From a virus (taxonomy: Duplodnaviria > Heunggongvirae > Uroviricota > Caudoviricetes): a DNA stretch of 18,880 nt. Position numbers and translations under genes: made by a program. Position 1 is the first letter of the stretch. Every line of letters begins with the position of its first letter. Below the pieces are notes generated by a model. That model saw only the letters and a list, made by a program, of their open reading frames with translations, ran no database searches and was not told the DNA's origin. This document shows, piece by piece, positions 1 through 15,319 of this stretch. Location: the IMG/VR virus record IMGVR_UViG_2740892422_000003, positions 1 to 18,880 of that record; one strand, given 5' to 3'.

Positions 1-50
1 TTGGTGGAGCTGGCGGGAGTTGAACCCGCGTCCGAAATTCCTACATCCTC
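1..50 (-). repeat. Left att direct repeat: 50-nt copy of the 3' end of the tmRNA gene ssrA, antisense on the + strand (displaced partial copy)
   Basis: Bases 1-50 are identical to 18831-18880. The reverse complement reads GAGGATGTAGGAATTTCGGACGCGGGTTCAACTCCCGCCAGCTCCACCA, the T-arm and acceptor CCA end of the tRNA-like domain of tmRNA. Sequence from 51 onward is AT-rich island DNA, not ssrA body. Confidence 0.85.
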
Positions 51-129
51 TTACATAGTATGGGAAAACAAAGCATTACCATATAAATCAATGTGTTGAT
101 TGACACTGACTAACAGTGCTTAACAGTCG

Positions 130-1143
130 CTAACACTCTGCATGGACATTTTGTGGATCTTTTTTGCTGATTTTTAACTTAATGAACTGAGGAACGCTTG
201 CGTCAATTGTAGTGTGATATTGAAATAAGGGGGATTTTCTATCACGATTATTGATTGAATAACTTATTATATCCTTCATAAGTAGCACAAAGTCAGTGGT
301 GAAATTATATTCAAGTATCTCAACCATTTTTAAATGAAAGTGCCAGTATGATTGTAGATATTTTTTTATATCCAATTCATCCGAAAATTTTGTTTTTAAG
401 AATAAAATATATTCATCTTCACCGTGGGTTGAGCACTGATAGAGTTTTTCAATATCTAAACGCTTTAGTCCATAAAGGTTGTGCAATAATTCTAATAGTT
501 TTTCAATGCTATGTATATGGGTGTATAACTCTGTATAGTCATTAATTTCTTCTTTTTTAAATAGTTCAACTAGTTGGCACCAAATTAATTCTGCATTTTG
601 TATGTAGTCCTTGGAAGCATCAAAATTATTATTAGTAGTTGAAGCATAAGGATAGCATTTACGATATGTAGAATAACAATTTTCAAATTCTAATTTTGCG
701 TTCTTTTTTATCAAAGGAATGTCTAAAGATTCAAGATGTTGTAATGCTTCTATAGTGTTTTTTCTATGGGTATAGAAAAAATCCACTTTGTTTTTCTTTT
801 CTGCTTCTTTGATTTGTTTATCTGTTTGTATTGTTCGATGAATATTATTGACAACTACTCCCAGTGGAATCGATAAAGATAAAACAGCTAAAGGAAGTTT
901 ACTAATGTTTAGGAAATTATTAAATCCTTCCGTATCGATTTGAACATTGTGACCATTCCATGCAACAAATCCGAGCAGAAAAAAACTAATTATTGGAATT
1001 GCCAGTGCGGCTTTGAATAATGGTTGATGCGTAAGAGGTTCAGCATTCATCTTGAATGCATTTATCTTGAATAAATAACCCATGTAAACAACCACAAATA
1101 AAATGTTAAATAAAACGATGCATTGATTGATTGTAAGGTTCAT
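130..1143 (-). CDS. Hypothetical membrane-anchored protein (337 aa), low-GC cargo gene directly downstream of the integrase
   Basis: Long ORF with hydrophobic N-terminal segments (CIVLFNILFVVVYMGYLF, LFKAALAIPIISFFLLGFVAW, LPLAVLSLSIPLGVVV) followed by a roughly 250-aa soluble domain rich in K/E/Y/N. Same strand as int with a 6-nt gap. Much more AT-rich than the phage core. No family recognised. Confidence 0.7.
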   Translation of the reverse strand: MNLTINQCIVLFNILFVVVYMGYLFKINAFKMNAEPLTHQPLFKAALAIPIISFFLLGFVAWNGHNVQIDTEGFNNFLNISKLPLAVLSLSIPLGVVVNNIHRTIQTDKQIKEAEKKNKVDFFYTHRKNTIEALQHLESLDIPLIKKNAKLEFENCYSTYRKCYPYASTTNNNFDASKDYIQNAELIWCQLVELFKKEEINDYTELYTHIHSIEKLLELLHNLYGLKRLDIEKLYQCSTHGEDEYILFLKTKFSDELDIKKYLQSYWHFHLKMVEILEYNFTTDFVLLMKDIISYSINNRDRKSPLFQYHTTIDASVPQFIKLKISKKDPQNVHAEC

Positions 1144-1149
1144 TTTTCT

Positions 1150-2163
1150 CTAAATTATTAATGATAAAGGATTTTTTGTTATTACATCTTCAAGATGCGT
1201 TGGCGCAAAGTGAGCATAGATCATAGTCATTTTTATATCTGAATGGCCTAAAATCTCTTTAAGAACAAGTATGTTTCCGCCATTCATCATAAAGTGGCTG
1301 GCAAATGTATGTCGTAATACATGTGTACACTGGCCTTCAGGCAGTACAATCCCCGCTTTAGCTACAGTACGCTCGAAAGTTTTACGGCACGGGGCAAACA
1401 ATTGGCCTCGTTTTTTTGGTATCTCGTTATAAAGCTCTTTTGAGATAGGTATAGAACGTACCTTTCTACTTTTCGTATTTTTGTAAGTGATACGGTATGG
1501 CGTAACTTGAGAGCCTTCTAGATTTTCCGCTTCACTCCACCTTGCACCGGTAGCAAGGCAAATCTTAGTGATGATGAGAACGTGCGGGCTATTAGATTCG
1601 GATAAATATTGTAAAAGAGTTTTGATTTCTTCTGAATAAAGAAAAGAAACCATTTTTTCATCAACTTTAAAGGTTGGAATTCCTGCCAATGGATTTGGAA
1701 GCGACCAATGGCCTAGTTTTTTTAGTGTACCAAATACGGCAGATAGATAGCGTTGCTCATGATTTACTGTCCGTGGTTGTATCGGCATACAACGTCCATT
1801 TATATCCGGAATTTCACCCTTTAAGCGACCTTCTCTGTATTGGCTGAAATCCGCCGCTGTGATTTGTGCTGCAATCGGATTTCCCATACCAGCACAAATA
1901 CCTTTCAATTTCGACATCATGCGGTCGGCATCTGCTAATGTTCGACCATATAGATCATGCCACTGCTCAATCAGATCTGATAAGCGTCGATTATCTTGCT
2001 TCTCACCCAGCCAGGGTTTGCCTTCCATTTCGCTGGCGATATATTTTTCATATGCCAGTGCTTCACCTTTCGTGGCGAATTTTTTACGAATACGCTTACC
2101 TTTCACCCCATTAGGGCGAAGATCGCACAACCATTCACCGCTTTCGATTTTCCGAACTGCCAT
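1150..2163 (-). CDS. int: Tyrosine site-specific integrase (P2/186 Int-like)
   Basis: 337-aa ORF. The C-terminal region carries tyrosine-recombinase signatures (HVLRHTFASHF and LGHSDIKMTMIYAHF with the catalytic Tyr). It lies next to the att repeat and the CI gene abuts it, as in P2/186. Confidence 0.93.
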   Translation of the reverse strand: MAVRKIESGEWLCDLRPNGVKGKRIRKKFATKGEALAYEKYIASEMEGKPWLGEKQDNRRLSDLIEQWHDLYGRTLADADRMMSKLKGICAGMGNPIAAQITAADFSQYREGRLKGEIPDINGRCMPIQPRTVNHEQRYLSAVFGTLKKLGHWSLPNPLAGIPTFKVDEKMVSFLYSEEIKTLLQYLSESNSPHVLIITKICLATGARWSEAENLEGSQVTPYRITYKNTKSRKVRSIPISKELYNEIPKKRGQLFAPCRKTFERTVAKAGIVLPEGQCTHVLRHTFASHFMMNGGNILVLKEILGHSDIKMTMIYAHFAPTHLEDVITKNPLSLII

Positions 2164-2738
2164 TACTCACTCACTAAGTATGTGGCCACAACCTTCCCAA
2201 TCAATTGCACATCAGATACGTCGCAATCAACTGGATATTTTCCCCAGTCAATCCGCAATTTGTTACCAGGAAGTAACGTCAATTCTTTGATGCTTTTCGT
2301 ACCAGAATACTCAAGAAGGAACTTACCGTCCGTAACAGGGTAATCAGCGATATCTACGAAAAATCTCACTGAACTATCACTGATTATTTGAAGTTCACCT
2401 TTGTAGTTGGGGAGTATTGTCTTATCGAAAATTACGGATGCTTGGCGAACCATATCAGACCCTTCGATTTTATAGGCTGAGATTCGAGTGGTATCACTTG
2501 CCACCTGATCAAATCTAACGCCATCACCAGTGGTTAGCCAGTAGATAGAAGCTCCTGTTTCTAGAGCACAAAGTAGTACTAAATCAGCAGGAAAGTTGTC
2601 ACGCATGATACGTGTACTTAAAGCACTTGGAGACATTCCAAGATAATTTGCTAACTGCATTCTGGATGTAAAACCATAAGCCTCACACACCCTTTCGATT
2701 GCTTCGCGTGCACCTGTCTTGATGTTGTAAGTTGTCAT
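2163..2738 (-). CDS. cI: CI-type immunity repressor (phage 186 CI-like), about 191 aa from the internal ATG
   Basis: Sequence from the internal Met (MTTYNIKTGAREAIERVCEAYGFTSRMQLANYLGMSPSALSTRIMRDNFPADLVLLCALETGASIYWLTTGDG) has an N-terminal HTH-like region and the size of 186 CI. Its stop overlaps the int start by 1 nt. The track ORF extends to 2852, but that 38-codon extension overlaps the operator/promoter region, so the ATG at 2736-2738 is preferred. Confidence 0.8.
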   Translation of the reverse strand: MTTYNIKTGAREAIERVCEAYGFTSRMQLANYLGMSPSALSTRIMRDNFPADLVLLCALETGASIYWLTTGDGVRFDQVASDTTRISAYKIEGSDMVRQASVIFDKTILPNYKGELQIISDSSVRFFVDIADYPVTDGKFLLEYSGTKSIKELTLLPGNKLRIDWGKYPVDCDVSDVQLIGKVVATYLVSE

Positions 2739-2889
2739 GTTTGTAGTTCGCAACTGTTGACAAACGACAATTTTAAAAATAATCTCTGAATTGTTTCGAA
2801 TGTAGATATTGATAATTGTCGTTTGTAGATTATTAACAACTATTGTCACCAACGCTCATTAGTGACAAACGAATGAGGAATTTTGCCGT
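2739..2889. promoter_or_regulatory. Lysis-lysogeny switch region with repeated operator-like motifs and a rightward promoter
   Basis: Between divergent cI and the early operon. An 8-9 bp motif GTTTGTAG / GACAAACG occurs in both orientations at about 2739-2746, 2757-2767, 2817-2828 and 2864-2871. A TTGACA (2757-2762), 17-nt spacer, TAATCT (2780-2785) arrangement is a sigma70-like promoter pointing toward the early operon. Confidence 0.55.
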
Positions 2890-3078
2890 ATGCAAACTAA
2901 AGCTGCAACACATTCAGAAAGCAGGTGGGTACCTCTGAAAACGTTTTGCGACAGGGTTGAAATAAAACTGCGCACGGGACGTTACTGGGTACACACTGGC
3001 AAACTCAAAATCAAACCTAAAAGCAAACCGAAAGAACATGTGTTTGTAGATTGGCTTGCGTGGAACAGTGAAAAGTAA
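2890..3078 (+). CDS. Small basic DNA-binding protein, Cro/Apl/Cox-like (62 aa)
   Basis: First gene of the rightward early operon, divergent from cI. Small and basic (KLKIKPKSKPKEH). The call rests on synteny with 186 apl and P2 cox, not on recognised sequence similarity. Confidence 0.5.
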   Translation: MQTKAATHSESRWVPLKTFCDRVEIKLRTGRYWVHTGKLKIKPKSKPKEHVFVDWLAWNSEK

Positions 3079-3121
3079 TCATCACTTTTAGTGATTTTGA
3101 GATTGGGATGGAAGAAAAACA

Positions 3122-3625
3122 ATGTTTGATTACCAGACCTCTAAACATGCGCACTTTGATGCGGCTTGCCGAGCATTTGCAATTGAGCACAATCTTGAAG
3201 ATGTGGCCGCTGCCGTTGGTATGAGGCCGCAGATCCTGCGCAACAAACTGAACCCAGCACAACCGCACCGCCTGACCTGTGATGAGCTTTTGGCTATCAC
3301 GGATTACACCGAAGATGCGCGTTTGCTTGATGGAATGTTAGGTCAGATTAACTGCCTTCCATCCGTGCCGGTGAACAATGCCACAGAAGGCAACATGCAG
3401 TTGTGCGCACTGAGTGCCACAGCCTGTGTGGGCGCGATTGCTGGGGAAGCCGTATCAACTGGCCATATGACTGCCGCCCGCCGTACTCAAATTCTGGATC
3501 GTGCCCGCGATGCAATCCGTAGCTTATCCGTGCTGGCTTATACCGTTGAAAGCCGTATTCACTCTGCGCCTGTTCTGGCCGCTGCGGTGGATCTGGCCAC
3601 AACCAACGCCACCGGCCTGATGTGA
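3122..3625 (+). CDS. cII: CII-like phage regulatory protein (phage 186 CII family)
   Basis: 167 aa, beginning MFDYQTSKHAHFDAACRAFAIEHNLEDVAAAVGMRPQILRNKLNP, with a predicted HTH. Same position and size as 186 CII. Confidence 0.75.
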   Translation: MFDYQTSKHAHFDAACRAFAIEHNLEDVAAAVGMRPQILRNKLNPAQPHRLTCDELLAITDYTEDARLLDGMLGQINCLPSVPVNNATEGNMQLCALSATACVGAIAGEAVSTGHMTAARRTQILDRARDAIRSLSVLAYTVESRIHSAPVLAAAVDLATTNATGLM

Positions 3626-3634
3626 GGGAACACC

Positions 3635-3808
3635 ATGAAAGCGTTTGTCACTTACCTGAAAAAAGAATCACCAGACATGCAGTTGCCGAGTGGTTCAACG
3701 GGATGGATAGAACTTCCGAACGGTCAGCGCTGGAACCCTGGCCACATGTACAAATTCAATGGCCAGCAGCCGCGTCGCCCATGGTGGCGTCGTCTGATGG
3801 GGCTATAG
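3635..3808 (+). CDS. Small hypothetical early protein (57 aa), not in the ORF track
   Basis: ATG at 3635 is preceded by GAGGGAA about 7 nt upstream, immediately after the cII stop. Translation is MKAFVTYLKKESPDMQLPSGSTGWIELPNGQRWNPGHMYKFNGQQPRRPWWRRLMGL. The overlapping frame (track ORF 3622..) gives a W/P-rich sequence that looks like out-of-frame noise. Confidence 0.4.
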   Translation: MKAFVTYLKKESPDMQLPSGSTGWIELPNGQRWNPGHMYKFNGQQPRRPWWRRLMGL

Positions 3809-3816
3809 GGGGCGTT

Positions 3817-4245
3817 ATGGCGATTAGCCAGGAACAGCAAAAGCGCGGGTTGGAGCATTGTAAAAGAATGCGTCTTCAGATCAACCCAGCCTACAGCGAT
3901 GCGGGGGACTGGTGGGACAACTTGACACCAGAGTGGCGCGGCGTGGTGCTTCATGCTGCTGCTGTTACTTCAGGTGCCGGGGTATTTAAAGCCCACTTAA
4001 GCAAATGCTGCTGGCAGGAACTTTATGAACGTCTGGGATATCGGGACATGATTCAACTACGACGGGGTATTTCACGGGCGCGCTTAACGTTCGAAGGTTT
4101 CGGCAGTTTACGTGACAGCGATTTTTCAAAGCGCACCGCGAACCGCCCGATCAAAAAGGCACATCCAATTTATAGCAGTAGCGGGGTGCAGATGGTGATC
4201 GCGCCTCATATCGTCCATAAGTTCCAGCAACAGGGGAATCACTAA
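3817..4245 (+). CDS. Hypothetical early protein (142 aa)
   Basis: Internal ATG of the track ORF 3622..4245, preceded by a G-rich RBS-like run. Its stop overlaps the start of the next ORF (ATGA). The start is ambiguous; in-frame ATGs at 3703 and 3781 are alternatives. Confidence 0.5.
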   Translation: MAISQEQQKRGLEHCKRMRLQINPAYSDAGDWWDNLTPEWRGVVLHAAAVTSGAGVFKAHLSKCCWQELYERLGYRDMIQLRRGISRARLTFEGFGSLRDSDFSKRTANRPIKKAHPIYSSSGVQMVIAPHIVHKFQQQGNH

Positions 4246-4646
4246 TGACCATTATTTCCGTTGAGGGTAAATCGTTGGGGGCTGAACTGGCTGTGTGGGG
4301 TGTCCCGCATAATTACGCTGTAGCGTTTGCAGCGAAAAGCACCAGTAAGAATGGCCGCATCGCTTTGCATCCGTTCTTCTTCAATGACACCGAGCACATG
4401 ACGAATCCGCGTCACTGGCTGGCGATCAATGCCGCTTTCTGGTGTTGCGTGTATCGCGAAGCTGAAAGCAAAGAAGCCCAGATAGAAGCGCTGGCGGGGA
4501 TTCGTGCAATTTTCTATACAGCTGGGGCGCTGGGTGTTGGCGAGATAAAAGCGCTGATCCAGGAGTGGTGGCGGACAACCTATGAGCTTCACCTGATTCC
4601 GGCACCGAACTACTCAGCCGCTACAGTACAACCCACTTTTCACTAA
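4245..4646 (+). CDS. Hypothetical early protein (133 aa)
   Basis: ORF translationally coupled to the upstream gene. No family recognised. Confidence 0.6.
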   Translation: MTIISVEGKSLGAELAVWGVPHNYAVAFAAKSTSKNGRIALHPFFFNDTEHMTNPRHWLAINAAFWCCVYREAESKEAQIEALAGIRAIFYTAGALGVGEIKALIQEWWRTTYELHLIPAPNYSAATVQPTFH

Positions 4647-4713
4647 TTAACAGCCTGAATTTTTTGGCCACGGTTCAAGTGGCCGGGGATTCTTTTGCCT
4701 TAAGGAAACCAAA

Positions 4714-4947
4714 ATGCACATGACACGTCAGGATTTACCCGCAACAAAATCAGGCACCGACCTGCTGGCCATGCTCACCAAAGCCACGCAGGAAGGTAAA
4801 GCCGCAGCTGCTGATCTGTGTTCCACACGTCTGGATAAGCTGGCCACCCATGCAGCCAATGAAGGTTTAAGCGCAGCGGAAATCGTTGAGTTAATCCGCG
4901 AAGAAGCCGCAGCGATTTGCAGCAAAGGCGGTGCGGCATGGCAATAA
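4714..4947 (+). CDS. Hypothetical small protein (77 aa), Ala-rich
   Basis: ATG preceded by AAGGAAA. Its 3' end overlaps the dam start. Confidence 0.5.
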   Translation: MHMTRQDLPATKSGTDLLAMLTKATQEGKAAAADLCSTRLDKLATHAANEGLSAAEIVELIREEAAAICSKGGAAWQ

Positions 4948-5798
4948 AAACTCCGCTTAAATGGGTGGGCAGCAAAGCCCGCCTTATGCCTAAGCTGCGT
5001 CCGCACCTTCCTGAAGGTAAACGCCTGGTTGAACCGTTCGCAGGTTCCTGCGCCGTCATGATGAATACGGATTATGACGATTATCTGATCGCAGATGTGA
5101 ATCCTGATCTGGTTAATCTTTATAAGGCGATGGCGTATCACACTGATGTGCTGCTGAATGAGCTGGAGAGCCTGTTTACTGCCGGTTCGTTAGGTGATGA
5201 AGAAAGCCGTGCCGTTTTCTATTACGCCGTGCGTGATGCTTTCAATCTTTCTGGTGGTAAGGCCGGTTCTGAATCTGTTGAAAATGCTGCGCGTTTCCTG
5301 TACCTGAATCGCCACTGTTTCAATGGCCTGTGCCGGTATAACCGCCGAGGCCAGTTCAACGTCCCGTTCGGTAAGTACAAAAAGCCTTATTTCCCCGCTG
5401 ATGAAATCCGCGCTTTTGCTGAAAAAGCGAAACGCGCAACGTTCATTACTGCCCACTATTCAGAAACGCTCGATTTGGTTCGGGACGGGAATGACGTTGT
5501 TTACTGTGATCCACCTTATCTGACTGAAAGCGATAATTTCACCGCTTACTATGGGCTCGGTTTTTCGCACATGGATCAGGGGAGGCTGGCGCGTAAGTTG
5601 CGCCGTCTGGCCAGAAAAGGCGTGCCGGTTGTGGCCTCTAATGCCGATCTGGAAATGGTGCATTACCTGTACGCCGGATTTGAAGCCGTTCGCATTAATG
5701 CCCCGCGTAGTGTTGGTGCCGCAGCTGCAAGCCAGAAAGTTGCTGCAGAGTTAATTCTGAAGTCGCCGCTTGATTCTATAGCGATGGCCTGCGCATGA
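4938..5798 (+). CDS. dam: DNA adenine methyltransferase (Dam-like, GATC N6-adenine MTase family)
   Basis: Motif I LKWVGSK, HLPEGKRLVEPFAGSCAVMMNTDYDDYLIADVNPDLVNLY, FLYLNRHCFNGLCRYNRRGQFNVPFGKYKKPYFP and catalytic DPPY (VVYCDPPYL) align closely with E. coli Dam as I recall it. Start set at the internal ATG (MAIKTPLKW); the track start at 4917 is an alternative. Confidence 0.9.
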   Translation: MAIKTPLKWVGSKARLMPKLRPHLPEGKRLVEPFAGSCAVMMNTDYDDYLIADVNPDLVNLYKAMAYHTDVLLNELESLFTAGSLGDEESRAVFYYAVRDAFNLSGGKAGSESVENAARFLYLNRHCFNGLCRYNRRGQFNVPFGKYKKPYFPADEIRAFAEKAKRATFITAHYSETLDLVRDGNDVVYCDPPYLTESDNFTAYYGLGFSHMDQGRLARKLRRLARKGVPVVASNADLEMVHYLYAGFEAVRINAPRSVGAAAASQKVAAELILKSPLDSIAMACA

Positions 5799-7816
5799 CT
5801 CCTGTCGCAAATGGCCAACATCATGCCGTCGATACCTGGCGGCGTGAAACGTTCGCACCGGGTACGCCTACAGACGCCACGATCACCGAGCGCCGCCTGT
5901 GGGCGGTTAATCCGCAGGATTACGAATGGCGCTCACAGTACCTGCATGAGATACCCGACTGGTTAGCCGGGTATTTTGGCCGTCGTTACGAAAAGCTTTT
6001 TTCTGGCCGTGACGGGCGTCGCCGTGCCAATACATTCCTGCGCAAAACAATCGGTGAGAATGTATTGCCACGTCTGCGCAAAGTGGCTGCGCGTTACTCG
6101 CTGGCCGCTGATGCTGCTGATCTTCCTTTTGGTAAGTCGCTGGAGCGCTTGCCGTCACTAGACCGTCCTGATCTTAAAAAACTGGCTGGCCAGGTATCTG
6201 GTTGGATTTCCCAGTCACTTTATGACTTCACCGAACAGTTTGATTCCGGCACTGACGATGCCAGAGAGCTGCATCGCCGCACCCTGGAATCTTACCGCCA
6301 TCTTTGTGCCTGTTGCCTGATGCTGAATAACCAGCCGCCGTACTGGACTGAACATGAGGCCAATGAAGGTCAACTGGAAATGCGTAAGGCGGAATCCGGG
6401 ATACTGCGCATGATGGCGCCGGAATGGTGGTACCTGCGTCTTAAACGTGCGCGTGATACGAAGCGCGAGCACATGGCCATTGCGGTGGGACAGGTGCAAA
6501 AAGCGGCCAGCGCTTATGTATCCCGCAAAACACTGGGCGAATGGATAGACCAGAAAAAGCGGAATCTGGAGTTCTTTAAAAAGTTTGATCTGCTGAATGA
6601 TGAGGGGCTGCGCATTGCACTGGACAGCCTGGTGCACCGCAGCGTTGCAAATCCGGCGATCCGTCGATGTGAACTAATGGTAAGAATGCGAGGGTTTGAA
6701 GATATGGCCAATGAAGAAGGACTGGCCGGTGAGTTTTACACCATCACCGCGCCATCACGTTTCCACGCAGTGCACAGCAAAGGTGGCTTTGTATCGCAAT
6801 GGGATGGATGTACGCCGCAGGATACCCAGCGCTATTTATGCGGCATATGGGCAAAAGCACGCGCAGCGATCTCGCGTGCGGGTATTCATGTATTTGGGTT
6901 TCGGGTTGTTGAGCCTCACCATGACGGGACACCGCACTGGCATATGTTGCTTTTTATGCGTCCGCATGACGTGGACACGGTACGCGATATTCTTTGCTAT
7001 CACGCCAGAATTACCGATTCTGAAGAACTGCAATCTGAAAAGGCGCTGAAGGCGCGTTTTCATGTTGAAGCGATCGATCCCGCCAAAGGTTCGGCCACGG
7101 GCTACATCGCGAAATACATTTCAAAAAATATTGATGGTTTTGCGCTGGATGGTGAGCAGGACGAAGAAACCGGCGAAAACCTGCGTGATATGGCTAAGTC
7201 CGTTTCCGCGTGGGCTTCACGCTGGCGTATTCGCCAGTTTCAGCAGATTGGTGGTGCGCCGGTAACTGTCTGGCGTGAGCTGCGTCGGTTGCGGGATCAG
7301 GTGCTGACCGATCGCAGAATGGATGCGGTTCTGGCCGCTGCTGATGTCGGTGACTGGGCTGCATATACCCAGGCGCAGGGCGGTGCACTGGTTGCCCGCC
7401 GTGATCTGGTTGTTCGTCTGGCCTATGAAATTACGGAACAGGGCAACGAGTACGCAGAGGACGTACAGCGCGTACAGGGGGTTTATTCTCCTTTAGTTCC
7501 TGATTCAGAAGTTTGCACCCGTCTGGTTAAGTGGCAAAAGGTTGCGAAGTTGGCCGAAGCGCCAGCGGAGGCGGGGTTTTCTGGCGGCAACGCCGCCCCT
7601 TGGAGTTCTGTCAATAACTGTACGGAGGGGGGAGCCCGCAGACGGTTAAAACTGGAATTACGCAGTCGGGGTTTTGAGGGTTCCGATGAAGAAATAGCCA
7701 TTCTCCTGCGGGGTAGTGGTTTGAGATTCGGTCAAGGGGCGCTGATTTACCGTAATGGGCGGCTTAAAGAGACTCAAAACGAGCCATTACAGGAGCTGTG
7801 GCCGGGGTGGGTGTAG
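5795..7816 (+). CDS. Rolling-circle replication initiation protein (P2 gpA / 186 A-like)
   Basis: 673 aa. Contains an HUH-type motif (HHDGTPHWHMLLF) and a downstream tyrosine motif (GYIAKYISKN) typical of P2 A-family nickases. Sits after the early regulatory genes as in P2/186. Start overlaps the dam stop (ATGA). Confidence 0.88.
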   Translation: MTPVANGQHHAVDTWRRETFAPGTPTDATITERRLWAVNPQDYEWRSQYLHEIPDWLAGYFGRRYEKLFSGRDGRRRANTFLRKTIGENVLPRLRKVAARYSLAADAADLPFGKSLERLPSLDRPDLKKLAGQVSGWISQSLYDFTEQFDSGTDDARELHRRTLESYRHLCACCLMLNNQPPYWTEHEANEGQLEMRKAESGILRMMAPEWWYLRLKRARDTKREHMAIAVGQVQKAASAYVSRKTLGEWIDQKKRNLEFFKKFDLLNDEGLRIALDSLVHRSVANPAIRRCELMVRMRGFEDMANEEGLAGEFYTITAPSRFHAVHSKGGFVSQWDGCTPQDTQRYLCGIWAKARAAISRAGIHVFGFRVVEPHHDGTPHWHMLLFMRPHDVDTVRDILCYHARITDSEELQSEKALKARFHVEAIDPAKGSATGYIAKYISKNIDGFALDGEQDEETGENLRDMAKSVSAWASRWRIRQFQQIGGAPVTVWRELRRLRDQVLTDRRMDAVLAAADVGDWAAYTQAQGGALVARRDLVVRLAYEITEQGNEYAEDVQRVQGVYSPLVPDSEVCTRLVKWQKVAKLAEAPAEAGFSGGNAAPWSSVNNCTEGGARRRLKLELRSRGFEGSDEEIAILLRGSGLRFGQGALIYRNGRLKETQNEPLQELWPGWV

Positions 7817-7896
7817 TTGTGTAAGTATGTGAAAGGCATTCATTTGTCAGTAGATGGCAGGAAAAAGCACTTTCACATTTTGTGCTTAAATGTATA

Positions 7897-7912
7897 CTGT
7901 GTTTATATACAG
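7897..7912. promoter_or_regulatory. LexA (SOS) box, CTGT-N8-ACAG
   Basis: CTGTGTTTATATACAG is a perfect match to the CTGT-N8-ACAG LexA consensus with an AT-rich centre. It overlaps candidate -10 elements (TATACT about 7893-7898, TATATA about 7904-7909). Confidence 0.7.
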
Positions 7913-7931
7913 TTATTCTGTTTTTGGGAGG

Positions 7932-8150
7932 ATGCTTGTGCAGGATTTGTTTTTGGAAACTATCGCATTGCAGCGGATTGCGTTGTTTACAAGGCTTATA
8001 GCTAAAAGTAATTGCACCGGCTGTGAGAAAGACATAGCACTTGCCTGGCTGAGCGAACTGACTTCAGATCTGGAAAGTAAGCTCGATGAGTATGAGAACA
8101 AAACCCCCAGTAATGGGGGCATTTCAGGCGGCGGGAGTCGCTTTCAGTAG
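7932..8150 (+). CDS. Small LexA-controlled ORF (72 aa), positional analogue of a Tum-like SOS antirepressor
   Basis: ATG at 7932 immediately follows GGGAGG and lies about 20 nt downstream of the LexA box. Translation begins MLVQDLFLETIALQRIALFTRLIAKSNCTGCEKD. Its 3' end overlaps the convergent ogr-like gene by about 27 nt. No sequence similarity to Tum recognised. Confidence 0.35.
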   Translation: MLVQDLFLETIALQRIALFTRLIAKSNCTGCEKDIALAWLSELTSDLESKLDEYENKTPSNGGISGGGSRFQ

Positions 8151-8447
8151 GTCTAATGCCATCTGGCGCTGATCGGGTGAAAGTGCATTCAGTATTTTTT
8201 GCACCATCGCATCACCCGTTTTAGCGCTGGGGCTGAGAGTGTGGGAGAACGTCAGATTCATAACAAACGTATGGCCACACTCAACATCTGAACAGGCGCA
8301 GTAAATATCCGCAATTTGCCGGTGCTTCCTGTTCGTTTTACGAATAACAGCCTTTGAGCCGCATTCCGGGCATTCGATTTTCAGAACTCGCATATTCCAT
8401 GCTCCAGCTGTTAAATGATGCCTGGATTTTAGCCTGTTTCGCCTCAT
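8124..8447 (-). CDS. ogr: Ogr/Delta-family zinc-finger late transcription activator
   Basis: Contains CPECGSKAVIRKTNRKHRQIADIYCACSDVECGHTF, matching the Cys4 pattern of P2 Ogr / 186 B (CPxC ... YxQCxNxxCxxTF). The track start overlaps the portal stop (ATGA); an internal Met (MRVLKIECPECG) directly before the zinc finger is an alternative start. Confidence 0.8.
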   Translation of the reverse strand: MRRNRLKSRHHLTAGAWNMRVLKIECPECGSKAVIRKTNRKHRQIADIYCACSDVECGHTFVMNLTFSHTLSPSAKTGDAMVQKILNALSPDQRQMALDLLKATPAA

Positions 8448-9505
8448 GCCGCACCCTTATCCGTTGATTCTGTGTAACTTAAATCAAAGTTAAGGTGTAG
8501 CCTTTCCGGTATTTCGGGATCGTTGTTAACGGCCAGCATGAAACGGCGCTGGATGGGGGCTATTTCGCTTTTCTTGTAAATGCGTTCAGCCTTTTCAACA
8601 TCCCCCAGTCCGGCAGTGTTCTGCGGGACAATACCGGCGAGGCCAGCAGGGAAACGGTGCGCGTTCAGAATGTCCTGGGCGCTGATGTTTTTGATGTTGG
8701 CAAATTCATCCTTCGCGGAAATATCCCCCATTTCAATGAATTTGATTGCGTCACCGTCTCCACCAGGAATGTTTACAAGGATGGTGGAGAAGTTACCGAT
8801 CCCTTTGCTGTCACGCAGCTGCTGTTCAATTTCTTCCTCCATTTCGTCCGTCATGCTGGGATCGCGGGTATAAAGAATACCGCCAGTGTGCGCACCGTTG
8901 TGGTAATAGCGGCGTCGGAAAATGACCGCTTCACTGTTTAGTAACGCGGAATGCACGCCGCCGATGTAGTCCGGCAGTCCGTAGATATGCTGTTGCGGGT
9001 CATACATTTTGATGAAGATAATATCTTCTTCTGGCCATACCTGCGGTTCTCCTTCCTGTAACACCACGTAGTCACCGGGCTTATCCTGGGCGTTATCTCT
9101 GACTTTGCGGCGGCGAATATACAGACCGGGCAAGGGTTCAAGTGCGATCACGTCGCCCCAGCCGTTACGAATTTTGGCAATTGCAATATCCCCAAAGGTT
9201 ATATAGTCAAACGCTGCCGCTTCCAGCTGGTCGTGAATAAGCCCGCCCCCCTGGTAGTCTGAAACAATCATGTTTTTGCGGGCGTGAATGATGCCGCCGT
9301 GCTGACCGTTAAGATTAATCAGCTGTGCGAGTGCCAGCCGGTCAATCGGCTGGGTGAAGTGATCGGCGGCATTGTCGTACCAGATATCACGATAATCTGT
9401 GCCGGTAGTCAGAACCGGTTCAGGTTTGCCGAATGTGATAATGCTCATCTTTTTTGATTTGTCGCCGCGCTGGTCGCGCTTAACAAAGCGTTTCTTTTTA
9501 CTCAT
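8444..9505 (-). CDS. Capsid portal protein (P2 gpQ-like)
   Basis: 353 aa, same size and position as P2 Q (downstream of and overlapping the terminase gene, divergent from scaffold/capsid genes). Basic N-terminus (MSKKKRFVKRDQRGDKSKK). Confidence 0.8.
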   Translation of the reverse strand: MSKKKRFVKRDQRGDKSKKMSIITFGKPEPVLTTGTDYRDIWYDNAADHFTQPIDRLALAQLINLNGQHGGIIHARKNMIVSDYQGGGLIHDQLEAAAFDYITFGDIAIAKIRNGWGDVIALEPLPGLYIRRRKVRDNAQDKPGDYVVLQEGEPQVWPEEDIIFIKMYDPQQHIYGLPDYIGGVHSALLNSEAVIFRRRYYHNGAHTGGILYTRDPSMTDEMEEEIEQQLRDSKGIGNFSTILVNIPGGDGDAIKFIEMGDISAKDEFANIKNISAQDILNAHRFPAGLAGIVPQNTAGLGDVEKAERIYKKSEIAPIQRRFMLAVNNDPEIPERLHLNFDLSYTESTDKGAA

Positions 9506-11277
9506 GCTGCCTCTTTCCTTACACCCCAGCGGGATTTAGGTTTGTTTTCATAGTTAAGGGGTTCGTTATGCAGACCGTGGGTAATCGCCCAGAACGCCTC
9601 CGCGTGGCCAGTATCCTGGCTGCGGTCAGCGACAAACGTCATGGCGTTGCCGCTTTGTGTGGTGGTTCGGCGCACAGACATAAAGCTGGCCGCGATCTCT
9701 TTCAGGTTTTTATCCCACTCAATACGCTGGCTTTCCACCACGTCCACCGCTTTCAGTACCAGTTGATTTTTAGTGTTCAGGTCGTAACGAATAGGGACGG
9801 CCACGCGCATGGCAAAATGCTGAATGTTGTCAAAAACACCCTGGCCAATGCCGGTAACGTCCACCCCCAGATAAGTGAAGTTGTATTTTTTGAACAACTG
9901 CTCGATCTGTTTTGCCTGATACCGGAAGTTCATGCCTTTCCAGTAAATCACCTTCAGAACGCGGAACTTCTCCACGGCGAGCATCGGTGGAGCGATGATG
10001 ACAAAACAGGACAAATCACCGCTGCGAGCCGGGTCAAAGCCACCCCATACAGGTCTGTCACCGAATGGCCGCGCTGCATCAGGATTGTGATCCTGCCAGG
10101 TGTCGATTTCAACGCCGCAGGCTTCCAGATCGGAAAAGCTGAAAACGGAATCTTTGCTGTCAACGAACACGCACATATAGAGCATGTTAAAAGTGGCGTC
10201 GTTGTAGCGGTTGCGAAGTTTCTCGATGTTCGCCAGGTTGAAACCGCCCGCAATGGCATCTTCCATCGTAATGACGTAGCGCCATTGCCCATCCGGGCAG
10301 AGTCGCCCACCGTCACGCATTTCGTTAAAGGAAGGAAACTTAATGGCCGCACGTTTTTTACTGCCCTGTTTCCACTCATCGCCCGTCCAGAACGGGTACG
10401 CCTGGTGCGTTTTTGCCGATGGCGTTGAAAAATAGGTGGTACGCCACTTGTCATGCGTGGCCATTGCGCTGGCCACTTCGTTAAGTTTTGCAAAGTTTGG
10501 TACCCAGAAATATTCGTCACAGTACAGGTGGCCGCTGTAGGACTGGGCGGTGTTTTTGTTGGTGGAGAGAAAACGCAGTTCTGCGCCGTTGCTTAAGCGG
10601 ATCGGGTTGCCGGTCAGCGTAATACCGAAATACTGCTCTGCAATATTCACGATGTAAGACCGGAACACTTCAGCCTGAGCCTTTGACGCTGACAGAAAGA
10701 TTTGCGGATCGCCGGTCATCACCGCGTTTTCAAACGCTTCAAACGCAAAATACCAGGTTGCACCGATCTGGCGGCTTTTCAGGATGTTCCTGACAAGCTG
10801 GCCAATGTTATTGCGCAGGTGTTTCTGATATTCAAAAAGATGTTCCTCAGCCCATGCGTCAAAGTCCTCCTGCGTCAGCGAGGTAATATCGTTTTTCTTG
10901 TACTTCCGTTTGCTGCGCGGTTCGTCGTCATTGTTGTCCCGTGCAGTTGCTTGCCCGGAACTCTGACCGCTGGCCATTTTCTCTTTATGTTTATTACTCT
11001 GCGCACGCAGTTTGGTGGCATGAGTAATGAGCATGTCCATTTCTTTCAGGTCGAGATCGGTTTTGTTATCGCGGCTGGCCAGCAGCTGGTAACGGCGTTC
11101 AATCGCTTCCTCTGTGCTTTCAAAACTGAGCAAATCCGCCCAGCTGTATTTCTCCGCCCAGTAGTAAACGATCCGCGCATTCGGCAGATTTAATTCAGAT
11201 GCGATTTCCTTTGGCGTATAGCGGCGCAGATAAAGTGCGCGAACAACGCCTTTTAATTCTTCAGAGTATTTAGCCAT
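9502..11277 (-). CDS. Terminase large (ATPase) subunit (P2 gpP-like)
   Basis: 591 aa (P2 P is about 590 aa). Divergent from the scaffold gene across a short control region and followed by the portal gene with a 4-nt overlap, as in the P2 head module. Confidence 0.82.
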   Translation of the reverse strand: MAKYSEELKGVVRALYLRRYTPKEIASELNLPNARIVYYWAEKYSWADLLSFESTEEAIERRYQLLASRDNKTDLDLKEMDMLITHATKLRAQSNKHKEKMASGQSSGQATARDNNDDEPRSKRKYKKNDITSLTQEDFDAWAEEHLFEYQKHLRNNIGQLVRNILKSRQIGATWYFAFEAFENAVMTGDPQIFLSASKAQAEVFRSYIVNIAEQYFGITLTGNPIRLSNGAELRFLSTNKNTAQSYSGHLYCDEYFWVPNFAKLNEVASAMATHDKWRTTYFSTPSAKTHQAYPFWTGDEWKQGSKKRAAIKFPSFNEMRDGGRLCPDGQWRYVITMEDAIAGGFNLANIEKLRNRYNDATFNMLYMCVFVDSKDSVFSFSDLEACGVEIDTWQDHNPDAARPFGDRPVWGGFDPARSGDLSCFVIIAPPMLAVEKFRVLKVIYWKGMNFRYQAKQIEQLFKKYNFTYLGVDVTGIGQGVFDNIQHFAMRVAVPIRYDLNTKNQLVLKAVDVVESQRIEWDKNLKEIAASFMSVRRTTTQSGNAMTFVADRSQDTGHAEAFWAITHGLHNEPLNYENKPKSRWGVRKEAA

Positions 11278-11437
11278 GCGGATAATTATGCCGTGGCTGT
11301 GATGAAAAAACGGTGGTGTTAATTCGTGTCCGTTCGGTAAAGCGTTATAACCGAACTGTTCAGAATAAAGCGTAATGCAGTGGCGGTTTTATTTGGCAAT
11401 AATTGATTTGCAGCGTCAGGGAGTGGAACAGGGGGAT
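11278..11437. promoter_or_regulatory. Divergent late-promoter region between terminase (leftward) and scaffold (rightward) genes, containing a dyad symmetry element
   Basis: Inverted repeat GTTCGGT-N11-ACCGAAC at about 11332-11356, embedded in TGTCCGTTCGG...CCGAACTGTTCAG. It lies between two divergently starting late operons, where P2-type late promoters carry the activator-binding dyad. Confidence 0.5.
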
Positions 11438-12241
11438 ATGTCACATTTAAAAACTGACTGGCTGTGTGTTGCTACTGAAGGGGATACCGTTGACGGCAGG
11501 GTAATTAAACGGCAGTGGATCATTGATATGGGGGAAACCTATGACTATAGCCACTATGTCGCTTTAATCTGGCCAGAACATGAGGATGATTGCGGAAATT
11601 TTGGTGAAGTGCTGGAAGCCACCTGGAATGATGGTGAAGATGGACTGGCACGGTTATATGTCAGCCTTTGCCCGAATATGCGTCTGATTTTCGCAAATCA
11701 TGAAGATCAGCTTTTGTTCTTCTCCATTGAGCCGGAAGAAAACTGGCGCGGTAGCGGGCGTACTTACCTGAAAGGGCTGGCGGTAACAGATACACCTGCC
11801 AGCGTTGGCACCACACGGCTGCGCTTTAGTAGTCGGCGCAATAAATTAACAAAGCAGGGATATTACAGCTGTGTAATTTCCCATGACGGAAAAATTAAAC
11901 AGGAAGCAAGAATGAAGAACTGGCAGAAACTGTTTGGTCTTAAACCAAAGTTTGAAGATGAAACGCCGCAGGATAATCCTGCCCCGGATGAAGATAAATT
12001 ACAGGCGCTTGCCAATGTGGTTAACGATCTGGAAGCGCGTGTGGCGAAAATTGAAACTCAACTGAATGACGTTCAGGGTGATGTTGACACAATCGCTGAA
12101 GTGGTGGATACGCAGGAATTTGCGGCAATTCGCGATAATGCAAAAGAAATCGTAACCCGCTTTAACGATTTGGGTAATAAAAACCCCCGTACACCGGGGC
12201 GTACTATTAAAGATAAAGCCGGGAAATTTAATTTCCTGTAA
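11438..12241 (+). CDS. Capsid scaffolding protein (P2 gpO-like)
   Basis: Internal ATG preceded by AGGGGGA. N-terminal VATEGDTVDGRVIKRQWIIDMGETYD resembles the P2 O N-terminus (GVEGDTCDGRVI...) as I recall it, and YLKGLAVTDTPASVGTTRLRF resembles the conserved gpO protease-like segment. The track ORF begins 63 nt upstream at 11375. Confidence 0.8.
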   Translation: MSHLKTDWLCVATEGDTVDGRVIKRQWIIDMGETYDYSHYVALIWPEHEDDCGNFGEVLEATWNDGEDGLARLYVSLCPNMRLIFANHEDQLLFFSIEPEENWRGSGRTYLKGLAVTDTPASVGTTRLRFSSRRNKLTKQGYYSCVISHDGKIKQEARMKNWQKLFGLKPKFEDETPQDNPAPDEDKLQALANVVNDLEARVAKIETQLNDVQGDVDTIAEVVDTQEFAAIRDNAKEIVTRFNDLGNKNPRTPGRTIKDKAGKFNFL

Positions 12242-12303
12242 TTCGCTTTATTGCTGATTAGTCCAGAACATATTTTTAAATCGCTTAATTGCGAGGGAGT
12301 TTT

Positions 12304-13326
12304 ATGCACCTTAATAATCGTGCGCGGGATTTACTGGATAAATATTCGGCGGGGATGGCGCAGCAGTTTGGTGCGCGTGATACCAGTCGATATTTTTCCC
12401 TGAATGACCCGCAGGAAAATGCGCTGCGTCTTGCGTTGCTGGAATCCGTCGAGTTCCTGAACATGATCACCTGTCTGGATGTTGACCAGCTGAGTGGCCA
12501 GGTGATCTCTGTCGGTTCTTCCGTGCTGCATACCGGCCGCAGCGAAAATGGCCGTTTTATTCGTCAGGTAGGCGTTGACGGTAATGACTATTCCCTGGTT
12601 GAAACAGACAGCTGCGCCGCACTGCGCTGGGATCTGCTTTCTGTCTGGGCAAACGCCGGTAAGGACGAAAACGAATTTTACAACCTGGTACAGGCATTCA
12701 CCACGCAGGCTTTTGCGCTGGACATGTTGCGCATTGGTTTCAATGGTAAGAGCCGGGCGAAAACCACTGATCCGGTAGCAAACCCGAACGGTGAAGATGT
12801 GAACATCGGCTGGCATGAGCGTATGAAAACGCTGCTGGGCGGCAATCAGATTATGACGGATGCCGTGGTGCTTGATGAGGCCGGGGATTACAAGTCACTG
12901 GATGCAATGGCGTCCGATCTGATTAACGCCAAAATCCCGGCGCAGTTCCGCAATGACCCGCGTCTGGTTGTCCTGGTCGGTGCCGATCTGGTCGCTGCTG
13001 AACAGTACCGACTGTATCAGGCGGCAGACCGTCCGACTGAAAAAATTGCTGCGCAGATGCTGGGAAGTACCATTGCTGGCCGTCAGGCCATTATCCCGCC
13101 GTTTATGCCGGGTAAACGCATGGTGGTTACGCCGCTTTCTAACCTGCACATCTACACCCAGCGCAATACCCGTATGCGTAAGGCGGAGTTTGTTGAAGAT
13201 CGTAAGCAGTTCGAAAACAAATACCTGCGCAATGAAGGTTACGCGGTGGAAGTGCCGGAGCTGTATGCGGCCATTGATGAATCCGCAGTGACGATCGGCA
13301 AAGTCTCCGAACCGGTGGAGGGCTGA
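12304..13326 (+). CDS. Major capsid protein (P2 gpN-like)
   Basis: About 340 aa from the ATG preceded by GAGGGAG. Segments FNGKSRAKTTDPVANPNGEDVNIGWHE and GDYKSLDAMASDLIN resemble recalled P2 N sequence. Directly follows the scaffold gene. Confidence 0.85.
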   Translation: MHLNNRARDLLDKYSAGMAQQFGARDTSRYFSLNDPQENALRLALLESVEFLNMITCLDVDQLSGQVISVGSSVLHTGRSENGRFIRQVGVDGNDYSLVETDSCAALRWDLLSVWANAGKDENEFYNLVQAFTTQAFALDMLRIGFNGKSRAKTTDPVANPNGEDVNIGWHERMKTLLGGNQIMTDAVVLDEAGDYKSLDAMASDLINAKIPAQFRNDPRLVVLVGADLVAAEQYRLYQAADRPTEKIAAQMLGSTIAGRQAIIPPFMPGKRMVVTPLSNLHIYTQRNTRMRKAEFVEDRKQFENKYLRNEGYAVEVPELYAAIDESAVTIGKVSEPVEG

Positions 13327-13329
13327 TAA

Positions 13330-15222
13330 ATGGCACTTTCCCCCGCGCAGCGTCACAGCCAGCGCATTGCGATGGAACAAAAGCTGAAACGCAGCCAGGC
13401 ACTGGAAACCACGGAAAGTATGCACCTGCTGATCAGGGCGTTGGAAACAGATGTGGAACACGTTCGAAGTCTGCCTACCATCGCCGATCGCGTCGAGTAT
13501 AAACGCGATGTGCTGTTAATGATGAAACCAGTAAAACGCCTTTACCTTTCAACGGATGAAGTTCACCTGGTGGATGCCAGCCTGGTACTGGAGCTGAACA
13601 GCTGCGGCCGGGGCTTCATCACCGCAGAGACAACAACCGATTACACCGGAAAACTGGTGCGGCTGGATGTGGGGTATACCGATCTGCTTTTGCGCTGGTT
13701 TACGGGGTATGTGGAGCGATCACAGCCCGCAGAAAACGGTTTTCAGCGTCTGTTCATTCGTGAGCTGGCAGGTGTGTTTGAAAGGATGTGGCCGTGTTCG
13801 TTTCAACACCCGACTTTGCGAGAAATTGCGGGCTGGCTGGAAGAAAACAGCGGGATCACAGTCAGTGTGCCTGATGCACAGTACAGCGATACCCCCATCC
13901 CACATTTTACCCATAACGGTACTGGTTATCAGTTGCTGAACAATCTGGGCAGGGCGTTCAGTATCCAGGATTACATCTGGTACCAGTTGCCTGATGGTTC
14001 GCTTTACGTCGGCGGCGCAGAAAAATCATTGTTTGCCGGTCGTCCCGTAGAAATCCCGTCAGAGTTCAGCCAGGGGGCTGCTGGCGGTAACTCTGTGACA
14101 TTACCAGTGATCCAGACTATGCGGCCAGGGGTGGAGATGAACGGTGAACGCGTGACTAAAGTTCACCTGACGAATGACACGATGGCGATCACATGGACGC
14201 CGAGAAACCGCGCAACGGGTAAACCTTTGCAGAAAACACCGGCGCAACGGCAGATTGAAAGCCATTACCCGGAACTGGCATCCGGGCTTCATTTGCCAAA
14301 GATGGCCAGAGTCGTGGCGCATTCAGAGCCAGTAAAAAGCGGTAACTTTGCCGATCCCTTCCGGCCACGTTACGCAGTGGACGTGCAGCTGCTTGACGCA
14401 GACGGAAACCCGGACAATCAGACGCCTGTTTACTCAGCGGTGCCGCTGCCGGTGCCAATGGCCGGGAATGATTCAGGTATGTTTCAGTTCCCGCCAGAAG
14501 GGACGCTGGTTGAGGTTGCATTCACGGGAGGCAGACCGGATAAACCCTTTATCAGGCAGACGCTGCCGGATGGTACCAGCCTGCCGGACGTTAAACCCGG
14601 TGAGCAATTGCAGCAGCAGCGGGAAGAAGTTTCCCAGCGGGTGACTCAGGCAGGAGACTGGGTAAGACAGACCGATCAGACCATCAGTGAAACATCGATG
14701 GTGCGAACGGTAAAGGCCGATACGGAACAGCGCGAACTGGTCAGCCGTGAAACCACGGTGAAAGCCACGGATAAAACTACGGTACTGGGAACCGCCACAC
14801 TGCTGGCCGGAGCTATTCAGCAGGTAAGCGCCGGTGATTATAGCCAGGCGGTGAAAGGTAACAGACTGGCCAGTATTGAAGGAAACGAAGAAACGGACAT
14901 AGCAGGACAGCAGTCCACTAAAGTGGGCGGTGCTGTAGCCGTGGAGGTTGGCGAAAGCCTGACAGAGAAAATTGCCGCACTGCGTAAATCAGTGGCCGCT
15001 GGCGGTCAGCAGGTCATGGGGGCAACTGTCCATATTGGCAGTGAGAGTATCAACGCCCTGACCATGATGCTGGATACCATTGATTTACTGGCAGATCTGG
15101 CGCAGCAATGCGCGAGCCATTCGCACCCCACCGTTGGGACGCCAACCAATGCCGCCGCGTTCACACAGACGGCGACGAAAGCCGGGCAGACCCGGAGCAA
15201 GTACCAGGGGATCATTGCTTAA
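13330..15222 (+). CDS. Chimeric 630-aa protein: small-terminase-like N-terminus (gpM-like) joined to a baseplate central-spike-like C-terminus (gpV/gp5/VgrG-like OB fold plus His-containing apex)
   Basis: Starts 4 nt after the capsid gene stop, with GGAGGG upstream. The N-terminus MALSPAQRHSQRIAMEQ resembles the start of P2 gpM (MTSPAQRH..., from memory). The C-terminal half has an OB-fold spike signature (FQFPPEGTLVEVAFTGGRPDKPFI), a repetitive T/V/K-rich segment (TVKADTEQRELVSRETTVKATDKTTVLGTA) and an HxH element near the end (CASHSHPTVGTP). Confidence 0.6.
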   Translation: MALSPAQRHSQRIAMEQKLKRSQALETTESMHLLIRALETDVEHVRSLPTIADRVEYKRDVLLMMKPVKRLYLSTDEVHLVDASLVLELNSCGRGFITAETTTDYTGKLVRLDVGYTDLLLRWFTGYVERSQPAENGFQRLFIRELAGVFERMWPCSFQHPTLREIAGWLEENSGITVSVPDAQYSDTPIPHFTHNGTGYQLLNNLGRAFSIQDYIWYQLPDGSLYVGGAEKSLFAGRPVEIPSEFSQGAAGGNSVTLPVIQTMRPGVEMNGERVTKVHLTNDTMAITWTPRNRATGKPLQKTPAQRQIESHYPELASGLHLPKMARVVAHSEPVKSGNFADPFRPRYAVDVQLLDADGNPDNQTPVYSAVPLPVPMAGNDSGMFQFPPEGTLVEVAFTGGRPDKPFIRQTLPDGTSLPDVKPGEQLQQQREEVSQRVTQAGDWVRQTDQTISETSMVRTVKADTEQRELVSRETTVKATDKTTVLGTATLLAGAIQQVSAGDYSQAVKGNRLASIEGNEETDIAGQQSTKVGGAVAVEVGESLTEKIAALRKSVAAGGQQVMGATVHIGSESINALTMMLDTIDLLADLAQQCASHSHPTVGTPTNAAAFTQTATKAGQTRSKYQGIIA

Positions 15223-15319
15223 TGCTGGTATTCATGTGATAAGTTGAGACGTTCTGGACTTCCTGATGGCTGTAGCTCTGTTGTTGGGTAGCCCAGAAAA
15301 ATTCGAAATAAAATGGGTA

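Follow-up and report, generated by a model that had tools for sequence, protein, structure and literature searches.

A predicted LexA-controlled short Tum induction module in a defective 186-like prophage

Introduction

How does a prophage whose repressor carries no recognisable autocleavage domain respond to DNA damage, and what is the role of a small open reading frame (ORF) that follows its replication gene behind a LexA-like palindrome? These questions are raised by IMG/VR record IMGVR_UViG_2740892422_000003, of which we analysed positions 1 to 18,880 (this whole stretch of 18,880 nucleotides (nt) is called the window below). An earlier note on this DNA had proposed a Tum-like, LexA-repressed module serving a non-cleavable CI repressor, as in phage 186, and had raised the idea that the ORF might encode a different small antirepressor. 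We find each sequence-level element of such a module present in the window and kept in relatives. With a probability of about 0.8, we assign the region 7872-8150 to a LexA-controlled Tum SOS induction module of a 186-like prophage (ESSI-2 group, Peduoviridae).

According to Lemire et al. 2011 (PMC3121763), Tum resembles a fusion of an antirepressor with DinI. The protein sequesters CI, with re-repression of pR after LexA recovery (PMC7708051). In Fels-2 and PSP3 a stop codon splits tum in two (PMC3121763), and the antirepressor activity of PSP3 was placed in the upstream gene by a personal communication in Bunny et al. 2002, as relayed in PMC3121763. In the PSP3 record, a 60-amino-acid (aa) tumA carries the annotation 'similar to 5' end 186 tum; UV induction of prophage', and the next gene, tumB, is homologous to DinI. 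In DuoHS, a prophage of Escherichia coli HS, an in-frame delta-tum deletion abolishes mitomycin-C-induced lysis, as does lexA(Ind-) (Phollow study, PMC12055606). A role in induction has thus been demonstrated genetically for DuoHS tum (PMC12055606), and binding to CI has been demonstrated biochemically for 186 Tum (PMC3121763, PMC7708051).

Results

Across the 18.9-kb window, CTGT-N8-ACAG is matched once, by CTGTGTTTATATACAG at 7897-7912, exactly where the earlier note had placed a LexA operator. The LexA-type 20-mer around it, TACTGTGTTTATATACAGTT (7895-7914, core CTG-N10-CAG at 7897-7912), deviates from the consensus TACTGTATATATATACAGTA at 3 positions; no other site in the window has 3 or fewer mismatches. 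As a control, 200 dinucleotide-preserving shuffles of the window were searched. The bare CTGT-N8-ACAG motif occurred at least once in 34 of them, and a 20-mer within 3 mismatches of the consensus in none (0/200).

Upstream of the operator, the + strand carries a -35 hexamer, TTCACA (7872-7877), separated by a 17-nt spacer from TACTGT (7895-7900), the left arm of the operator, which also serves as the -10 hexamer. Both hexamers are those annotated for p95, which the GenBank record of 186 gives as the SOS-dependent promoter of the tum operon. The spacer of p95 is 18 nt instead of 17, and in both phages the LexA site begins at or covers the -10. A -35 of TTCACA or TTTACA, again with a 17-nt spacer to TACTGT, is found in 9 of 11 loci carrying a gene of the window type. 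Homology to p95 therefore predicts an SOS promoter at 7872-7900, in agreement with the proposal that the operator overlaps a plausible promoter. As far as can be read from the sequence, a LexA operator overlapping the promoter is present directly 5' of the gene, the arrangement that characterises the family.

The 55 nt between the gpA stop and the -35 (7817-7871) show 79-87% conservation among other E. coli prophages, including those with a swapped tum body. This spacer holds GGCAGGAAAAAGCAC, which loosely resembles the 186/P2 cohesive end. A cos site was considered at this place and rejected: the 186/P2 cos pattern matched nowhere in the window, even with 3 mismatches allowed.

The small ORF does follow the replication gene, with the gpA stop at 7816 and the promoter beginning at 7872, and it ends at TAG 8148-8150. 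Two start codons compete. From ATG 7932 the product has 72 aa, and the ATG abuts the Shine-Dalgarno sequence GGGAGG (7926-7931, + strand, read off the sequence) with zero spacer. From GTG 7938 the product has 70 aa and begins MQD..., and homologues begin MQD... or VQD... at the GTG position. Because the Shine-Dalgarno sequence lies 6 nt from GTG 7938 and the homologue starts align there, we take this codon as the likely start, which places the gene at 7938-8150 (+). The 72-aa ORF with a strong ribosome binding site, as it had been described, is real as regards both the frame and GGGAGG; its first codon probably has to be moved. A G-rich Shine-Dalgarno sequence stands at the equivalent place in all relatives. 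An 86-aa form from ATG 7890, given in the ESSI2_ev040 annotation, was set aside as implausible, its start lying inside the promoter.

Comparison of the window with locus L040 (E. coli EcPF15) over a 53-codon core revealed 14 synonymous and 2 non-synonymous changes, a ratio of non-synonymous to synonymous rates (dN/dS) of 0.03. When 15 pairs of diverged window-type loci were pooled, the ratio of non-synonymous to synonymous differences (pN/pS) was 0.35 in the tum frame, against 0.97 and 1.52 in the other + frames. The small ORF is a real coding gene under purifying selection. AlphaFold, supplied with a 41-sequence alignment, modelled the 70-aa protein as a two-helix hairpin (helices 5-23 and 28-54) with a mean predicted local distance difference test score (pLDDT) of 83.7. 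The score reaches 94-97 in blocks spanning residues 11-50 and is low past residue 54, so that the protein divides into a core (residues 1-54) and a low-confidence tail (residues 55-70). Compared with the PDB by Foldseek, the model matched generic helical hairpins alone, with E above 1, and the fold is uninformative on function; there is no solved structure for the short-Tum family or for the Tum N-terminus.

Is this protein a Tum? The ORF matches phrog_698 (6.9e-18) and phrog_8554 (3.1e-7), and the N-terminal 44 residues of 186 Tum match the same two families (2.7e-5 and 1.4e-11, respectively). We built a family profile from 41 members found by an exhaustive search over 1.84 billion representatives. 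Aligned with hhalign, it recovered 186 Tum with a probability of 95.2% (E 2.6e-8, residues 5-44 in both) and PSP3 TumA weakly (30%, E 6e-4). The search itself gave 54 clusters at E up to 1e-3, nearly every one a short protein (47-123 aa). With the 62-aa product of DuoHS tum, the ORF shares 51% identity over 53 residues (BLASTP E 2e-18), and identity to the Fels-2 homologue STM2728 is at an equal level. By contrast, the DinI part of Tum was not detected: the ORF had no Pfam match to DinI even at E 10, where 186 Tum matches DinI at 1.8e-17. Pfam and NCBIfam assigned no family to the ORF.

BLASTP, hhalign, PHROG matches and selection all point to a tumA-like gene at 7938-8150. Its product belongs to the Tum family and corresponds to the N-terminal, non-DinI antirepressor half in a split, TumA-type form. 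The small size of the ORF, half that of Tum, is accounted for by this split form, which PSP3 and Fels-2 have as tumA/tumB, and the idea of a different small antirepressor fails in view of the hhalign probability, the shared PHROGs and the BLASTP match at 2e-18. The proteins concerned carry little by way of a label: RefSeq has "hypothetical protein", and PHROGs has "unknown function" (phrog_698, phrog_8554, phrog_1993, phrog_37919).

We also identified the gene that had been deleted in DuoHS. All three published delta-tum primers, whose sequences were taken from the preprint of the Phollow study, match the HS chromosome, and the gene is ECHS_RS04495 (62 aa, 'hypothetical protein'). It has a LexA box, TACTGTAAATATAAACAGTG, on its 5' side and a separate DinI-like gene on its 3' side. 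In two further phages, a tum homologue with a LexA box is unannotated in RefSeq, namely Yersinia phage vB_YenM_324 (L036, 6893-7105) and Cronobacter phage ESSI-2 (L002, 2543-2767). In sequence, the protein of the Yersinia phage falls between 186 Tum and the window type.

The arrangement is conserved. A locus scan with one genome per species, run with a narrower alignment as query than the set that includes 186 Tum and the S.Kent type, yielded 28 loci across Enterobacterales. In 25 of the 28, a CTG-N10-CAG box lies 37-67 nt 5' of the start; of the other three, one lies at a contig end (L010), one has a pseudogene (L034) and one shows no detectable box (L030). A second set, with phage and E. coli loci added and start codons re-anchored, was limited to the 41 loci in which the gene is intact and the sequence 5' of it is long enough. 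Here a LexA box stands 36-67 nt 5' of the gene in 39 loci, including 186, PSP3, Fels-2 and E. coli HS, and the two without a box are L030 and L044, the latter having been left out of the box scan. The box is at -36 to -41 in 186, PSP3 and 11/11 window-type loci, at -58 to -67 in most loci of the DuoHS/Fels-2 type, and at -39 in three Pantoea-group loci of that type. Across dozens of diverged loci, the box keeps a fixed distance even as the flanking sequence changes.

Gene order follows suit. gpA lies just 5' of tum in nearly all related loci, with a like order in 186, PSP3, Fels-2 and DuoHS, and short tum is accompanied by a 186-type CI. A separate dinI lies 3' of tum in most loci; it is absent from the window-type loci and from seven of the DuoHS type (L012, L016, L018, L019, L021, L022 and L029). 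A tblastn search of the window with the 186 DinI domain found no match at E 1e-4. DinI is accessory, not defining, for the antirepressor half. Among 5426 complete E. coli genomes, a 23-mer from upstream of the DuoHS-type tum occurs in about 1100, and the window-type region in 26.

Some loci differ in the body of tum. Comparison of L039, L042, L043 and L003 with 7938-8100 of the window revealed two alleles, 'MQDLFLE...' and 'MDLLEASAQLERIE...', which are 33-35% identical. Both divergent alleles lie between near-identical flanks (gpA 94-96% identical, and the same ogr), which marks a replacement of tum alleles by recombination within the module.

The presumptive target of the antirepressor is encoded at 2163-2738 (-), a 186-type CI repressor of about 191 aa (Phage_CI_repr 2.1e-24, Phage_CI_C 6.5e-16). 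It is 35% identical to 186 CI, and the Pfam scan found no S24 peptidase (autocleavage) domain in it, consistent with the proposal of a 186-type repressor without a RecA-cleavage domain. By analogy with 186, CI would be what Tum acts on, and the following mechanism is proposed. In an undamaged lysogen, host LexA would sit on 7895-7914, cover the -10 of the p95-type promoter and keep tum silent. Upon DNA damage, activated RecA would lead to LexA self-cleavage and the promoter would fire. An mRNA starting about 30 nt 5' of GTG 7938 would then give the 70-residue helical-hairpin protein, the equivalent of the N-terminal antirepressor half of 186 Tum (PSP3 TumA, Fels-2/DuoHS short Tum). This short Tum would bind CI stoichiometrically and reversibly, as 186 Tum does, so that CI would lose hold of its operators and the early lytic promoter would be derepressed until LexA recovers. 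Homology likewise suggests that short Tum binds CI and is needed for prophage induction.

In 186, as here, tum comes after gene A, CI lacks the autocleavage domain, and the N-terminal 44 residues of Tum are homologous. Its Tum, however, has 146 aa with a DinI-like C-terminal domain fused to it (Pfam DinI, residues 87-145), the window ORF corresponding to the other half, and the internal starts that give modulatory products, as well as orf97 next to tum, are absent from the window. The biochemically demonstrated, reversible binding of CI by 186 Tum serves as the mechanistic model for the window protein. In Fels-2 (STM2728.Fels2) and DuoHS, tum also stands directly after gpA with a LexA box 5' of it and a 186-type CI in the prophage. 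The box lies 58-67 nt 5' of the start there and 41 nt in the window. A separate DinI-like gene follows in those prophages, with cargo before the portal gene, whereas the window has no DinI and its gene enters the convergent ogr. PSP3 TumA is, like the window Tum, a short stand-alone antirepressor half with the same promoter layout (LexA box 38 nt 5'). The two are remote in sequence, and PSP3 has tumB (DinI) directly 3'.

The same logic, in which a small LexA-repressed protein binds and inactivates a non-cleavable repressor, is shared by GfoA/GftA of Gifsy, FsoA of Fels-1 and AntC of N15 (PMC3121763). These act on repressor families other than that of the window, and in Gifsy dinI comes first. 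No sequence relation between them and the window Tum was found; the exhaustive search gave short Tum-like proteins alone. Phage P4 offers a further parallel: its Epsilon is a small satellite-encoded protein that inactivates P2 C, a P2-family immunity repressor, and it is not known to be LexA-controlled. P2 C is unrelated to 186-type CI, and no similarity was detected between Epsilon and the window Tum.

At its 3' end, the gene runs into a convergent gene for an Ogr/Delta-like zinc-finger late-gene activator (8124-8447, -; Pfam Ogr_Delta 6.4e-20). The overlap observed in the earlier note amounts to 27 nt (8124-8150), in which the last 9 ogr codons are antisense to the final tum codons. The intrinsic terminator of ogr, detected by a terminator scan as the hairpin GCCCCCATTACTGGGGGT followed by TTTTGTT on the - strand (8103-8120), lies within the coding tail of tum. 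Its C5/G5 stem is kept in 11/11 window-type loci, and in all 11 no stop interrupts the frame before the shared one beyond the hairpin, indels notwithstanding. Read on the + strand, the hairpin encodes K-T-P-S-N-G-G (motif K-x-P-x-x-G-G). A K-x-P-x-x-G-G...(F/L)Q tail occurs in about 15 of the 41 family clusters, and the ogr-overlapping arrangement is therefore widespread. The last 15 or so residues of Tum come from translation of the terminator hairpin and of sequence antisense to the end of ogr. This tail is modelled with low confidence and has no relation to the C-termini of Tum from PSP3 or DuoHS (the C-terminal 10-15 residues also differ from those of Fels-2), and on these grounds we infer that it is tolerated read-through rather than a functional domain.

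For ogr itself, RefSeq gives a 107-aa form from ATG 8447, and phage records give an 89-aa form from ATG 8393. The ATG 8447 start would overlap the stop of the portal gene in ATGA (8444-8447), and translation of ogr would then be coupled to that of Q.

The window belongs to a P2-family, 186-like prophage, whose module region shares about 98% identity with Escherichia phage ESSI2_ev040 (Peduoviridae). Homology to intact relatives ends about 62 codons into gpM (small terminase), near 13512, and resumes at the start of the last ESSI2_ev040 gene. Some 12.6-13 kb are missing, comprising the remainder of gpM together with gpL and the genes for lysis, tail and tail fibres. By its sequence, the prophage is a defective deletion derivative. 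The remnant retains the int, CI, replication, tum, ogr, portal, large terminase, scaffold and capsid genes. SOS induction could derepress, excise and replicate such an element, with phage release only given help.

Discussion

The operator, the promoter architecture, the coding gene, the family membership, the repressor type and the conserved arrangement are features of the DNA itself. Several points nevertheless weigh against reading the locus as a working Tum module. LexA binding, SOS-dependent transcription and action on CI are each deduced, from sequence or by analogy. A generic sigma-70 scan made no promoter call at the SOS-promoter region. Pairwise BLASTP of the ORF against 186 Tum gave no match, so that the tie to the biochemically characterised protein depends on profiles and intermediates; the earlier remark that no similarity to Tum could be recognised holds for pairwise comparison, whereas PHROG and hhalign profiles do reveal homology. 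Without small terminase, lysis and tail genes, the module cannot yield phage release alone. Finally, Tum and CI alleles are loosely coupled. Between the window and L040, Tum is 98% identical and CI 38% (N-terminal domain 58%, C-terminal domain 26%), and between the window and L032, Tum is 52% identical and CI 79%. Such weak coupling is unexpected for a strictly cognate pair. Of 78 locus pairs in which Tum identity is 90% or more, 55 have a CI identity under 50%. The identity of Tum correlates with that of the CI N-terminal domain at rho 0.58 and with that of the C-terminal domain at rho 0.20. It tracks gpA even better (rho 0.70), and the correlation is therefore confounded by phylogeny. Being weak and confounded, the co-variation test speaks neither for nor against CI as the target.

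The loose coupling raises the question of cross-induction in polylysogens. The LexA-controlled Tum might be a broad, trans-acting antirepressor that recognises a surface conserved among 186-type repressors instead of its own CI specifically, and it might cross-induce co-resident P2/186-like prophages. The uncoupled pairs favour this, as does the closer relation of Tum identity to the conserved N-terminal domain of CI than to its C-terminal domain. Strain 300709 carries a window-type element together with a DuoHS-type tum, and trans-acting LexA-controlled antirepressors are documented in the Gifsy and Fels-1 prophages (PMC3121763). On the other hand, shared ancestry confounds the correlations, and CIs at 35-40% identity may retain the needed contact surface, so that uncoupling is no proof of promiscuity. 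We regard broad specificity as a tentative possibility, at odds well below even, and the same low weight is given to its more pointed form, in which the target of short Tum is the DNA-binding N-terminal domain, conserved among 186-type repressors. If it were true, a single element producing Tum under SOS would turn on every other 186-like prophage in a polylysogen, and head-only remnants would be active in induction networks or helper-dependent elements, not inert debris. In a tail-less, lysis-less remnant, cross-induction may even be the main remaining role of Tum.

Other explanations do away with the protein or with its regulation, and are much less probable than a change of specificity. The most serious of them takes RNA as the main output, in the form of an antisense transcript from the LexA promoter or of interference into ogr-Q-P, modulating late genes. 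The promoter does point towards ogr, Q and P, the sole 3' hairpin is a strong terminator for the - strand only, and tum and ogr overlap by 27 nt. Yet the core is under protein-level purifying selection, the Shine-Dalgarno sequence and start codon are conserved, and a search of 7500-8700 against Rfam found no RNA family. Moreover, in DuoHS, Fels-2, 186 and PSP3 it is co-directional genes, not ogr, that follow tum, which makes the protein the conserved feature; an RNA function is improbable on these grounds. Still less credit is due to the view that the palindrome is a chance AT-rich inverted repeat without regulatory meaning, the ORF being constitutive or silent. The frequency of the bare motif in shuffles lends it some colour, whereas the full 20-mer match was reached in no shuffle and the box distance is held across dozens of loci with diverged flanks. 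From 186 biology, a constitutive antirepressor would also be incompatible with stable lysogeny. Least credible of all is that the true gene is a 69-aa ORF on the opposite strand (7913-8122, -), with the + strand ORF as its shadow. That strand is stop-free over almost the entire tum region in most relatives, and its frame has a pN/pS of 0.42, near the 0.35 of the sense frame. The frame is, however, in the antisense phase whose wobble positions coincide with those of tum, which imitates constraint by construction. The - strand ORF begins within the ogr terminator, the promoter scan called no promoter for it, and it is broken in L041 and L042; all homology, as well as the experimentally deleted DuoHS gene, is on the + strand. 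We therefore discarded this ORF, which spans the whole tum gene, as a shadow.

A LexA-controlled short Tum remains the preferred reading. The kind of switch is already known, and the established picture of 186-type induction is unaltered. As the gene that makes 186-like prophages SOS-inducible, short tum has a practical value for annotation, and short Tum plus LexA box would provide a simple sequence test for the DNA-damage inducibility of P2-family prophages.

Other features of the element

In E. coli 300709, the DuoHS-type tum is located elsewhere (H47) from the window-type element L044, placing two Tum types in one cell. The window-type element of this strain and DuoHS of E. coli HS (L045/L046) occupy the same chromosomal site, rcdA-ybjL.

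The window further encodes an integrase (1150-2163, -), an Apl/Cox-like gene (2890-3078), CII (3122-3625) and a Dam methylase (4917-5798), followed by replication gene A directly 5' of the module (5795-7816, +; Pfam Phage_GPA 4.5e-104). Beyond ogr lie portal gene Q (8444-9505, -) and large terminase gene P (9502-11277, -), and, after gene P, scaffold gene O and capsid gene N. At the deletion junction (13330-15222), the reading frame of gpM, cut after about 62 codons, runs on into a homologue of the 568-aa gp01 of ESSI2_ev040 ('baseplate protein'), and the joined ORF has 630 aa. Two other window-type elements, L040 (12010-12821, EcPF15) and L044 (19512-22152, 300709), also end within the first 50-60 gpM codons. 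Their right junctions differ: one falls at gp02, the other at the tail fibre assembly gene. Such head-only remnants, which extend from int to the capsid gene, recur and may reflect independent or nested deletions, or a selected architecture.

On the 3' side of the remnant are genes for a hexapeptide-repeat transferase (15320-15889, -), a PIN_12-domain protein (16608-17780, +) and an Abi_C abortive-infection-type protein (17924-18733, -), and these three may be defence cargo or flanking island genes. Adjoining the integrase is a 337-aa ORF (130-1143, -) to which no Pfam family was assigned. The cargo between int and CI varies among relatives, being a tetratricopeptide repeat (TPR) protein, a P-loop nucleoside triphosphatase, or DUF4276 plus an AAA ATPase, which suggests that the int-adjacent region is a variable cargo slot.

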